NCBI GenBank assembly: GCA_047947115.1
Contig: CP170459.1
Location: forward strand, 96,001 to 160,000
Length of the DNA stretch: 64,000 bases
Reading direction: 5' to 3'
Origin: Verrucomicrobiota bacterium
GTDB taxonomy: Bacteria; Verrucomicrobiota; Verrucomicrobiia; Limisphaerales; AAA164-E04
Position numbers and translations under genes: made by a program. The notes under the pieces were generated by a model. It worked only from the letters and a program-made list of their open reading frames with translations, searched no databases and was not told the origin of the DNA. Below are positions 32,915 through 35,900 of this stretch, piece by piece. Numbering within the stretch: the first letter of the stretch is position 1; the number at the start of each line of letters is the position of its first letter.

Positions 32915-35900
32915 TTAATTTCCGGAATAGGAGTAAGTTTTAAAGTGTAATTTGATATCATCCACTGTTCGAATGAACCGCTTGATACCCTCCTTCGGAT
33001 TGTTAAGGAGCGTGTCACCGGGAATCACCAGCTTCCAATGGGTATTCCAGACCGAACGTCCTACCAGTCGATTGTTGGTGTAATTATCCATGACATGGTT
33101 CATTTGGACAAAAACATCCGAGGTCGAAACGGCCCTGAAGGCCTGATGCTTTCGAATTGGAAAGTCAGCATTACCATTGGCCACTGATAAACCCTGATCA
33201 AAAATTCGGGCAAAGTTGAAGGGGTTATCACCAATATTGAAAGGAATAGGTAGGATGGTTTCTTCCACGCTCCACTGCCTGAGTCCTGTTTGATCTCCCA
33301 AAGGCGGTGTCCTCATGATATCCTGCCCAACAGGGATGAGGTAAATGTATGGAGTAGCTGAAAGCGCATCCGGATTCAGCCAGTTAAAACCGCCTGCTGG
33401 ACTCGACCCTCCAAGACTTCCAACGACCTGAGTGTTCGACAGGAAGTCTGACATACCCTCGTAGCCTTCCAGCGCAACTCCCGCTCCAAATATCTTATTG
33501 GCAAATGAGCTTGTAGAGAAAGTGTTATCCCCTGGGTTTAATATGTGACCAAACAAATTATAACCTTTCTCAATTCTGGTAGAGAATTCGAAAAGAAGCC
33601 CTGGCACAGGCAACCCACTCCCGTCATCAATTTGCAAGCACAGTTTTTGTATATCTGAATCTTCAAGCAAATTATTTTTGTAAGCATTCAGCAGAACGTC
33701 CTGCCACGCACTCTCTCCACTTTGGTCAGGATAAATGCGATAGCGCTCTGTTCTTAAAGAAAAGGTTGTACCGTAAGTGTCTGGGTTGTTGATCCCAAGT
33801 CTTGGCTCAAGGACATTCCAGTTGAATTTAAGTTCCGCCAGGATGCTGGCCAAACCCGGGTCGCCCATGTCTGAACCTGTGATTTGAGGTATACCGTCAA
33901 TCATGACTCCAAGGGACCTTGTCGCTATAATACGATTGAGAAACTGCTGCCCCGACTGCGTTCCAAGCAATCCGGTTTCGTAATCAAAAGCGGAGGCGGC
34001 AAGAAAAACGGAGCGAGCTGCCAGGTCAAACATCTGGCTGTAACGATCCTGGGTTTCCTCCCTGAAAATACGTAAGCCCGCGTTGCGAGTCCTAAGGCCC
34101 TGTATGCGCCTCGATACGTGTTGGCGCATGATATGGCGTTCCTGAATCAAACGCTCGGCCCTGGCTTTAATTTGCTCCATGGCCAACCTTTTTCCTTCAT
34201 ACTCGTCCGCAAGATAAGCAGCAGACTCAACCAGATCCACAAATTCAGCGAATTGGCCAGACATATCGTTTCCGCTATCTATTCTTCTCAAATTTGTCTC
34301 CGCTGTGTGATTGCCTTTAACAGTATCCTCATTATTTTTAATGTCATTTGATGTGATGATACCATTGATGGTCTGGGCATAAGCCATTTGCCCAAGCATG
34401 GTTAATTCTTGAACAAGAGAAGCAGTAAAATAACCGGGGATTTTTGCGGCCTTCGGCATATCACCACCTACAGAAAAACCCGCAATGAATACCTCTGGTA
34501 ACTCTTTGAGAACATCTTTTACGAGATCCATATCGTATATGATTGCATCTGTAAGGAGAGTCAACGCCTCTAATGAGGCAGCCATGGCTGAATTATCATT
34601 CTCACGATCCATCACGCTTTCTTGGACCTCCCATAATTCATTCTCAATCCGTCTAGTCGCATTGTAAGCCGCAACAGATCCATCAAAATTCGCAGTCCAG
34701 GTGGTCAACGAATTCAGAGCTGCAGTTAGTTGGTAATAAGCGGACTTCACCTCCGTGACGGCGATTTGCAACTCACCAGCCGCGGGTCTTCTGGATTGAT
34801 AAGAATCAGGTTTTTCTGGGATACCATGCTCGTCCAAATGATATACGACGAAATTTGAAATTCCATCCTCCGGATTGTCATAAGTTGGATCATCTAGTTT
34901 CGTCCACCATTCAAAACCATTTTTCTCATCATCCCAATCATCCCAATCACTTGGGATTAATTCCCAATCAAGAGGCATGGATTGTTTATCTATTTGAAAT
35001 GTCGTGCCGCGACCACTGAAACCATGTAAAGCTGAATCCTCGTTTGTATACATGTAATGGTAATAGTCCGGTCCCGTATATCCTTGAGAATACAATTTTC
35101 CTGGACCTACATCATCAGGGTATGGTTGCCCCAGCAGATCTATGAGTTCGGATTCATAAAGGTATTCCTGTAACTCGACTTCATCTCGAAGCGTGTCCAA
35201 TGTGTTTTCGTCTTCGTGAAGTTTGCCTGAAAACCTTTTGATATGATAAAAGGAGTCAATAGCAGCCGACAAGGCCACCACAGCCTTGTCATAAAGTTGT
35301 TCAAAATGCCCAGTTGTTTCCTCTCTTGCAATTCCCAGGATACGATTGGGATCGATATCGAAAGTAACGGTATCTGCAGTAAAGTTCAGAGGCGTCAAAC
35401 CGCCATCCAGACTGTCTTGCAAAGATTGTAATTCAAAGGATGCATGAGCCAGTGAACTCAACTCGACCACCGTCTGTCGATCCACTTTCTCAATGCCCTC
35501 TTTGTCAACTTCATCAGGAAGCATGCTATTTCCGACTGCCCAGTTGATTAAATCACCCTGAGCGGTTCTGGCAACCCAGTGATCAACACCCCAGGCTCGT
35601 CGGTAAGGAACTTCCTCTTCACCTTTCAAATAAGTTTTAGATTCTGCTTCCTGAATAGCGCCACGCCCTAGATGGTCCCAGCCGACATCCTTGACTGGTT
35701 GATAATCCATTCGGCGTGTTGCTTCAATAATTGCCATGGATGCCTGATGCCAGCTGTAGGCCGATGAAGCAAATTTACGTTCGTCCATGTAGTCCACACT
35801 GACGGGAACACCCAGAACCGAGACAGCTTCAACGCGCGGGTTCCATTGAAACCAAGGCTTCATTATAAGCTTATAATAGCCCTTGAGGGCAGTCAGGTAA

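Follow-up and report, generated by a model that had tools for sequence, protein, structure and literature searches.

To our knowledge, TcA proteins have so far been studied only as one third of the insecticidal ABC toxins, mainly in Proteobacteria, and the stretch of DNA analyzed here raises the question of what a TcA-like protein could do without the other two thirds. This window comprises 64,000 nt of a Verrucomicrobiota bacterium (positions 96,001 to 160,000 of contig CP170459.1, assembly GCA_047947115.1) and contains a giant gene, here called gene A, whose product (A) is predicted to carry the channel and TcB-binding folds of TcA in its last ~830 amino acids (aa). Gene A is single-copy in the one-contig, 6.08-Mb genome (95.8% complete; a search of the genome itself gave one match). 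We propose that A is an exported, adhesin-guided, TcA-like pore puncturing target cells without an enclosed enzyme, a reading to which we assign a probability of roughly 0.4.

A sequence-only reading of the locus had claimed TcA-like channel and TcB-binding motifs at the C-terminus of a signal-peptide protein, pointing to three motifs in the order known from TcA. All three do lie in one open reading frame (ORF), are confined to the last 795 codons of gene A and are conserved family-wide among its relatives: a tip motif at aa 2402-2414 (34463-34501; formerly noted at ~34462-34499), an RYSQ...YE motif at aa 2554-2576 (33977-34045, exactly as noted before) and a terminal motif formed by WKLVIP (aa 2890-2896) and VDDIKLHFKTYSY (aa 2914-2926; 32927-32965). 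The extreme C-termini of the relatives are near-invariant (..SGN/..AGN). In a profile-profile comparison with 10 TcA C-termini, the second motif pairs with YDLA..C..A..A of TcA (E 1.4e-4), and a longer local alignment is colinear through the tip, the second motif and the last strand (E 5.4e-4). As for the claimed signal peptide, the N-terminus of A is signal-peptide-like judged by hydrophobicity only, and a hydrophobic stretch within the first 50 residues occurs in 172/218 long, Met-starting relatives versus 12/218 in a control window.

Structure prediction provided the most direct link to TcA. An AlphaFold2 model of aa 1969-2929, built from 88 sequences (model 1; mean predicted local distance difference test score, pLDDT, 74.8), features a helix (2133-2191), an inserted domain, a second helix (2311-2401), a low-confidence tip and a 155-residue return helix (2423-2577), and ends in a confident alpha/beta domain. 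A Foldseek search of this model against the PDB gave 22 matches at E<=0.001; among the matches listed, all (21) are TcA subunits, led by pore-state TcdA1 (E 2.1e-10), and the first non-Tc row follows at E 0.23. In VIA-align, 20 TcA chains rank first (Z 10.7-15.1), model residues 137-958 are placed on TcdA1 2008-2516 at Z 15.1, and the domain order is common to A and TcA through the last strand. Because long helices inflate whole-model Z scores, we regard the isolated TcB-binding domain (6l7i_A, 2327-2516) as more telling, which overlays aa 2640-2926 at Z 8.4 with a root mean square deviation (rmsd) of 4.0 Å and 148/179 residues. The structural similarity on which the sequence-only reading depended was hence found by Foldseek as well as VIA. 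In the ESM Atlas, the best named cluster is TcA_TcB_BD (0.90, 188/256 features, 10/10 named hits agreeing), at a low recognition value that makes it a lead only.

Sequence searches gave a sparser picture. No HMMER link between A and TcA was obtained by phmmer and two family hidden Markov models against the PDB or by Pfam on A and 35 relatives at E<=1, and a tblastn route to TcA, run against plasmids, gave no link either. The Pfam profiles TcA_TcB_BD and ABC_toxin_N are not above cut-off in A (best 13 bits in relatives, cut-off 25) and have no match in this genome, both profiles being silent in every control genome too. PF18276, searched in 38 whole genomes, gave only two matches at E<=0.1, both of which lie inside A-family genes. 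Overall, we consider the TcA likeness of A to be real and well supported at the level of the predicted fold.

A belongs to a large family. Of 7,990 candidates scored against its C-terminal region, 1,407 are related at E<=0.001, clustering at 50% identity leaves at least 1,761 representatives, and 39/301 sampled Verrucomicrobiota genomes (13%), from 31/149 genera, carry a member. For the comparison of loci, we used the best 80 of 586 GTDB loci from a scan over 21/64 parts, a set biased to close kin, in which the record title names a Verrucomicrobiota taxon in 71 cases, another taxon in 6 and none in 3. By record title, the carriers are mostly free-living aquatic Verrucomicrobiota, and the sequence described here was found in salt-marsh, estuary and seawater runs in 20/21 of the matches listed, from 19 studies. 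Several genomes hold 2-4 copies of A, some in tandem operons (L098, L121, L147), and in L097, L076, L135, L147 and G018 the gene is split over at least two reading frames, by frameshift, gene splitting or assembly error. Among viral models in BFVD, the sole match to model 1 at E<=0.001 is A0A481Z1I0, a 1,032-aa uncharacterized protein of Mimivirus LCMiAC02 (E 3.5e-8, 936 columns, 8% identity, template modeling (TM) score 0.20); this giant-virus record may contain a TcA-like module.

As the sequence-only reading had stated, A lacks the TcB/TcC cocoon. This genome has no match to SpvB or TcdB_midN and no hit for SepA or SepB; its SepC matches are RHS cores only, distant from the A locus. Hence, of the SpvB and RHS genes for which a genome search had been advised, SpvB is missing, while four RHS-core matches exist 0.6-1.4 Mb away, without linkage to A, two of them long (1,642 and 1,823 aa). 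Across 91 loci (the 80 GTDB loci and 11 genome regions, 12,100 reading frames), SepB and SepC gave zero matches at E<=0.001, and no effector-like or enzyme gene is conserved beside A in the 91 + 11 loci read. Generic RHS cores unlinked to the operon occur in 30/39 carrier genomes and none was found in 9/39, five of which are 99-100% complete. TcB-like genes are present in 3/39 carriers (G081, G065, G155; SpvB 3/38, TcdB_midN 3/39), never adjacent to A, and the consistent co-occurrence of tcB/tcC orthologs that would speak for a split toxin was looked for and not found. These three genomes are the one argument for an ordinary Tc toxin with tcB and tcC elsewhere in the genome, as they carry SpvB + TcdB_midN proteins, whose ORF also encodes an RHS core in two cases. 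However, 36/39 carriers, including this genome, have none, the gene in G081 is located ~60 kb from the operon and A stays below the TcA Pfam cut-off, so that we regard this explanation as largely refuted and scarcely credible. With no TcB accompanying it and no TcC in its locus, A is not part of a Tc holotoxin. The ORFs of G081 (C9:2482-7908) and G155 (C138) are stand-alone SpvB + TcdB_midN + RHS-core proteins of 2,213 and 2,323 aa, i.e., of a fused BC type, and neither genome has a match to canonical TcA.

What A is predicted to have retained, with modifications, is the needle. The segment between tip and second motif measures 145-147 aa in 174/174 proteins with a readable tip motif (99/273 were unreadable by pattern), compared to 116 aa in SepA, whose descending arm has 131 aa and to which TcdA1 aligns gap-free over tip and return arm. 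Further arm segments are 54 aa long in 240/240 relatives and 104-105 aa in 149/150. Each arm of A is about 25-30 residues longer than that of SepA, which at ~1.5 Å per residue makes the needle of A ~4 nm longer. The distal arm sequence is poorly conserved (0.22-0.36), and fixed lengths despite barely conserved sequence are what is expected of a tube acting as a ruler. The descending helix additionally accommodates an insert of 85-160 aa in 202 relatives, missing from the TcA comparison set, and the tip is hydrophobic and Gly-rich across the family.

Upstream of the needle, A has its own architecture. A second model (model 2, aa 1281-2200, pLDDT 79) extends the modeled part to aa 1281-2929. The only Pfam domain of A is its LamG lectin insert, at whose place other relatives feature PF05345, PF18483, PF07691 or PF01483. 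The FN3-type sandwich in model 2 finds FN3 domains at Z 8-10, and the following helical bundle occupies the place of the TcA shell, which according to PMC6795518 ends at TcdA1 1972; its matches are generic helical repeats (Z ~8; hhalign E 0.5). No TcA was found among the rows listed for model 2 by Foldseek, VIA in its wide search and a second VIA look, which does not imply that the shell differs, because one FN3 domain filled the hit lists. The linker-like coil has 25-34 aa in 175 relatives and resembles TcdA1 1973-2015 by eye only (hhalign E 0.22, with a better reversed control). Visual similarities to TcA of this kind, in shell as well as linker motifs, were not confirmed by hhalign and are not used here. 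Two genomes (G033, C19, L153; G266, C8) have ~320-aa insertions in the helical bundle, just before the linker-like region.

Beyond what the sequence-only reading covered, A is embedded in a conserved multi-gene operon; the longer needle with its inserted domain, and the fact that the rest of A is not recognizably TcA-like, had been overlooked as well. Ten co-directional ORFs run from 49633 to 24509 with a spacing of 2-44 nt (Table 1). The 44 loci with flanks of at least 3 kb each (33 of the 80 from GTDB and the 11 genome regions, this one included) usually show the gene order B-F-A-D-M, and the B C-domain is present in 43, the B N-domain in 40, D in 42, a fiber gene (F) in 40 and M in 27. In a second operon type, B is split, F is missing, and A is followed by a longer D-like gene, a peptidyl-prolyl isomerase and a cadherin giant. 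The Kelch-propeller gene heading the run is not conserved across the 10 neighborhoods compared.

Gene B gave no match in Pfam, the PDB or the named ESM Atlas clusters. Its C-domain forms the end of the ORF in 54/56 cases, and in G223 (C133; L163:6286 to L164:5851) it closes a 6,522-aa ORF that comprises at least 23 LamG domains and lies directly upstream of A. The B C-domain may thus dock adhesive payloads. A predicted complex of A aa 2558-2929 with mature B scored 0.00, which speaks neither for nor against binding; one monomer cannot present a pentameric funnel. The F proteins resemble the N-domain of mosaic adhesive trimers (MATs; NF053851) at 16-40 bits, under the cut-off of 60 (E 3e-10 to 6e-3), 15/61 F ORFs contain the S74-type SDxxxK motif, and among 57 their tips fall in 7 similarity clusters. 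In G266, two fiber genes have the MAT-like domain away from the N-terminus of the reading frame. A 300-nt block is common to F1 and F2 at 89% identity (45538-45837 and 47120-47419), and one RNA contig skips 45628-47211 inside this repeat, which may be an assembly artifact or fiber recombination. RNA-library contigs diverge from the F3 tip region at 43634-43758, suggesting tip variation in the population.

Gene D likely encodes a surface tether. TSP3_bac occurs in 54/65 members, and the N-terminal part is operon-specific and single-copy, whereas the C-terminal part is found in 13 ORFs of this genome. Twelve of these ORFs lie outside the operon, where the module (TSP3 + beta-sandwich) is C-terminal in most of the best matches and may be a phylum-specific surface-sorting domain. 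M, with a hydrophobic anchor in 45/50 members, is a candidate immunity or assembly factor; a second, unlinked copy of M is located at G000:C1:2715386-2716006.

Table 1. Features of the operon and of protein A, in window coordinates (all on the minus strand).
Feature	Position	Strand	Basis and remarks
Kelch-propeller protein, 573 aa, heads the run	47912..49633	-	Pfam; faint MAT N-domain likeness (NF053851, E 0.007)
Fiber gene F1, 518 aa	46319..47875	-	MAT-like N-domain (NF053851, E 2.6e-5, under cut-off); C-terminal S74 chaperone-peptidase (PF13884, E 2.8e-14)
Fiber gene F2, 459 aa	44902..46281	-	MAT-like N-domain (NF053851, E 1.9e-6, under cut-off); tip differs from F1
Fiber gene F3	43557..44879	-	In-frame TAA at 44550-44552, giving ORFs of 109 aa and 326 aa
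Gene B, 599-aa signal-bearing protein, obligate partner gene	41713..43512	-	B profile in 39/39 carriers and 4/262 other genomes
Gene A, 2,929-aa TcA-like giant protein	32915..41704	-	Intact ORF
A: signal-peptide-like N-terminus, aa 1-33	41606..41704	-	Sequence; putative cleavage site
A: inserted LamG-type lectin domain, aa 655-797	39314..39742	-	Pfam PF13385, E 3.7e-27
A: beta-rich domains, aa 1281-1725	36530..37864	-	Model 2; end in FN3-type sandwich, aa ~1599-1725
A: helical bundle, aa ~1720-2100	35405..36547	-	Conservation 0.5-0.76; helices in model 2
A: linker-like coil, aa ~2100-2132	35309..35407	-	Coil in both models, between bundle and channel
A: TcA-like channel hairpin, aa 2133-2577	33974..35308	-	Model 1; helices 2133-2191 and 2311-2401 down, 2423-2577 up
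A: domain inserted in descending helix, aa 2192-2310	34775..35131	-	Model 1; partly low pLDDT
A: hydrophobic Gly-rich tip, aa 2402-2414	34463..34501	-	Conserved P..h.G.a.GGD; pLDDT below 50
A: TcB-binding-domain fold, aa 2640-2929	32918..33787	-	Structure overlay with 6l7i_A
Gene D, 272 aa	32094..32912	-	N-terminal immunoglobulin (Ig)/carboxypeptidase-regulatory-like sandwich, TSP3 calcium repeats, C-terminal module
Cadherin/Ig-repeat, Calx-beta protein, 2,299 aa	25151..32050	-	Pfam; similar giants follow A in second operon type
Gene M, 206-aa MORN_2-repeat protein	24509..25129	-	Pfam; N-terminal hydrophobic anchor

Contigs from four RNA libraries, each of a different study, span 29-30/30 bins over 30.5-50.4 kb, in runs selected because they contain A, which fits expression of the operon; in three of the four runs, 10.6-21 kb is hardly covered, and contigs cannot prove absence. 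A promoter and terminator scan of 23.6-33.5 kb remained at chance level. We also considered the correlation of A-B, A-D and A-F identities (Spearman 0.77-0.91) as a sign of co-evolution and rejected it, attributing it to shared descent. Transposase genes of ISL3, DDE, IS3-like and IS66 type flank the operon on both sides (19571-23687 and 50677-62169), which, together with its lower GC content (47.9% versus 51.1% in the genome), possibly marks a mobile or rearranged island. At 14443-18996, a run of lipoprotein-like genes (LpoB-like, faintly CsgG-like and with PEGA domains) has a GC content below that of the preceding genes.

With these components, the puncturing of target cells could proceed as follows. 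Judged by their hydrophobic N-termini, A, B, F and D would be exported through the inner membrane by way of signal peptides, in contrast to SepA, which is encoded behind holin and lysozyme genes. By analogy with TcA, A would then oligomerize, probably to a pentamer, in which the hairpins assemble into a ten-helix tube. Domain content and gene linkage suggest that B, the MAT-like fibers and the lectin inserts in A could serve as interchangeable target recognition, and that D may tie the particle to the surface of the producer. In what is the weakest step, the helical bundle and the short linker might restrain the needle until contact and then free the hydrophobic tip. The opened tube would leak ions and solutes and thereby kill the target or free its contents, and with ~4 nm of additional needle, a membrane lying beneath a wall or periplasm would come within easier reach. 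In fact, PMC6795518 describes ion-permeable bilayer pores of isolated TcAs lacking TcB/TcC, and a cocoon is consequently dispensable for a pore.

Several observations weigh against this reading. The whole-model overlap with TcA is loose (TM score 0.15-0.25, rmsd 10-17 Å, 9-14% identity), a cohesin coil reaches Z 10.6 by virtue of its long helices and the tip is modeled at a pLDDT below 50. Split sub-profiles score near their reversed controls (pore 0.014 versus 0.043, TcB-binding domain 0.012 versus 0.22), and given such weak scores the motifs alone are insufficient as proof and the structure model carries the case. Shell and linker, the parts powering TcA, are unmatched by hhalign, Foldseek and VIA, the descending side of the tip is less hydrophobic than that of TcA (0.33-0.93 versus 1.13-1.17), and fibers are missing from the second operon type (G054, G138, G197, G257, G110, G123, G242). 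Moreover, few parts of A are as well conserved as the funnel domain (0.6-0.79), which is unexpected for a pore without cargo. Part of this list, i.e., the low TM scores and the sub-profile values near control, together with the failure of HMMER to link A to TcA in the PDB or Pfam, could also mean that the TcA likeness is convergent and reflects a long coiled-coil hairpin next to a common beta-sandwich. Since structure search, language-model features, profile comparison and the stray PF18276 hits all lead to TcA, with four landmarks arranged as in TcA, we consider convergence very improbable.

The conserved funnel suggests that something docks there, and it is the best argument for a true injector, in which the needle pierces and unlinked RHS proteins, or an unrecognized effector or chaperone, dock on the funnel and are threaded through. 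The strong conservation of the TcB-binding fold and of the extreme C-terminus, the unlinked RHS cores of 30/39 carriers, with the two long ones of this genome, and the constant co-inheritance of B, which could be an adaptor, would all agree with such a function. However, no conserved neighbor of A qualifies as the effector in the 91 + 11 loci, the nine carriers without an RHS core include five near-complete genomes, the SpvB region, i.e., the TcB propeller that docks to TcA, is missing in 36/39 carriers, and in the single giant protein scanned, the B C-domain is joined to lectin arrays and not to enzymes. An injector therefore appears unlikely to us, though well within consideration.

The same degree of doubt applies to a use of the TcA fold without attack, as a rigid stalk or a conduit in the producer's envelope, by which adhesins would be displayed or exported so that the cell attaches to particles, algae or biofilm. 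Every recognizable neighbor of A is an adhesin or a tether, shell and linker of TcA are unmatched, the carriers are, by record title, mostly free-living and aquatic, and the fixed arm length suits an envelope-spanning strut equally well. Nevertheless, a conserved hydrophobic, Gly-rich, TcA-like tip would be needless in a scaffold, the adhesins bear signal-like N-termini of their own, and the small membrane-anchored gene that often follows A is placed as an immunity gene might be.

If A does puncture cells, it would stand for a widespread and undescribed class of contact-dependent membrane-piercing machines: Sec-exported, long-needled, tethered, aimed by MAT-like fibers and lectin arrays, free of an RHS cocoon, and used by aquatic Verrucomicrobiota for killing or tapping microbes and algae. 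This generalization is tentative, and we regard it as rather doubtful at present. In the full-text literature searched, we found no paper on such a TcA-like Verrucomicrobiota family; neither "verrucomicrob" nor "signal peptide" occurs in the main text of the dbTC survey (PMC7861908), whose tables could bear on novelty, and the available part of PMC12705794 classifies only ABC toxins. The A family keeps needle and funnel, drops the cocoon and gains accessory genes of its own, in a phylum that is abundant in water and soil. Should such a class of machines exist, the Tc syringe would occur without TcB/TcC, might be older than its association with them and would provide the anchor so far lacking for MAT-type N-domains; a piercing A would moreover be a new antagonism or feeding device in a phylum known mainly for polysaccharide degradation. 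Under any reading, the role of a TcA syringe lacking TcB/TcC, the control of needle length and the binding partners of MAT-type N-domains become testable.

Among known systems, A is closest to the TcA subunits of Tc/ABC toxins (Photorhabdus TcdA1, Xenorhabdus XptA1/2, Serratia SepA, Yersinia YenA2/TcaB), with which it shares, in order, the predicted hairpin with tip, the neck and the TcB-binding fold. In both cases, the module forms the C-terminus of a protein of ~2,500-3,000 aa with variable lectin or beta domains in the N-terminal part (for TcA, see PMC6795518). A differs by its 9-14% identity, by the length of both arms and the insert in the descending helix, by a region in which shell, neuraminidase-like domain and knot are unmatched, and by a signal-like N-terminus in place of holin/lysozyme neighbors, an accessory operon of its own and the missing TcB/TcC. 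Many carrier genomes encode stand-alone RHS and fused TcB-TcC proteins, but never in the operon, and 9/39 carriers do without them. With the umbrella toxin particles of Streptomyces, we take A to share the design idea only, i.e., one locus encoding a long helical core along with accessory arms and interchangeable lectin modules; umbrella particles bear a toxin domain on the core and are not known to have a TcA fold, whereas A ends in a predicted funnel fold. The F genes, finally, resemble the MAT fibers of Bdellovibrio in having a possibly related N-domain (~130 aa in MATs) after a signal peptide and variable tips, but they score under the family cut-off and occur in 1-3 copies beside a TcA-like needle, compared to 21 scattered predator adhesins. 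As MATs are described as surface trimers with an unidentified anchor of the N-domain in PMC10769870, the A operon supplies candidates for this anchor.

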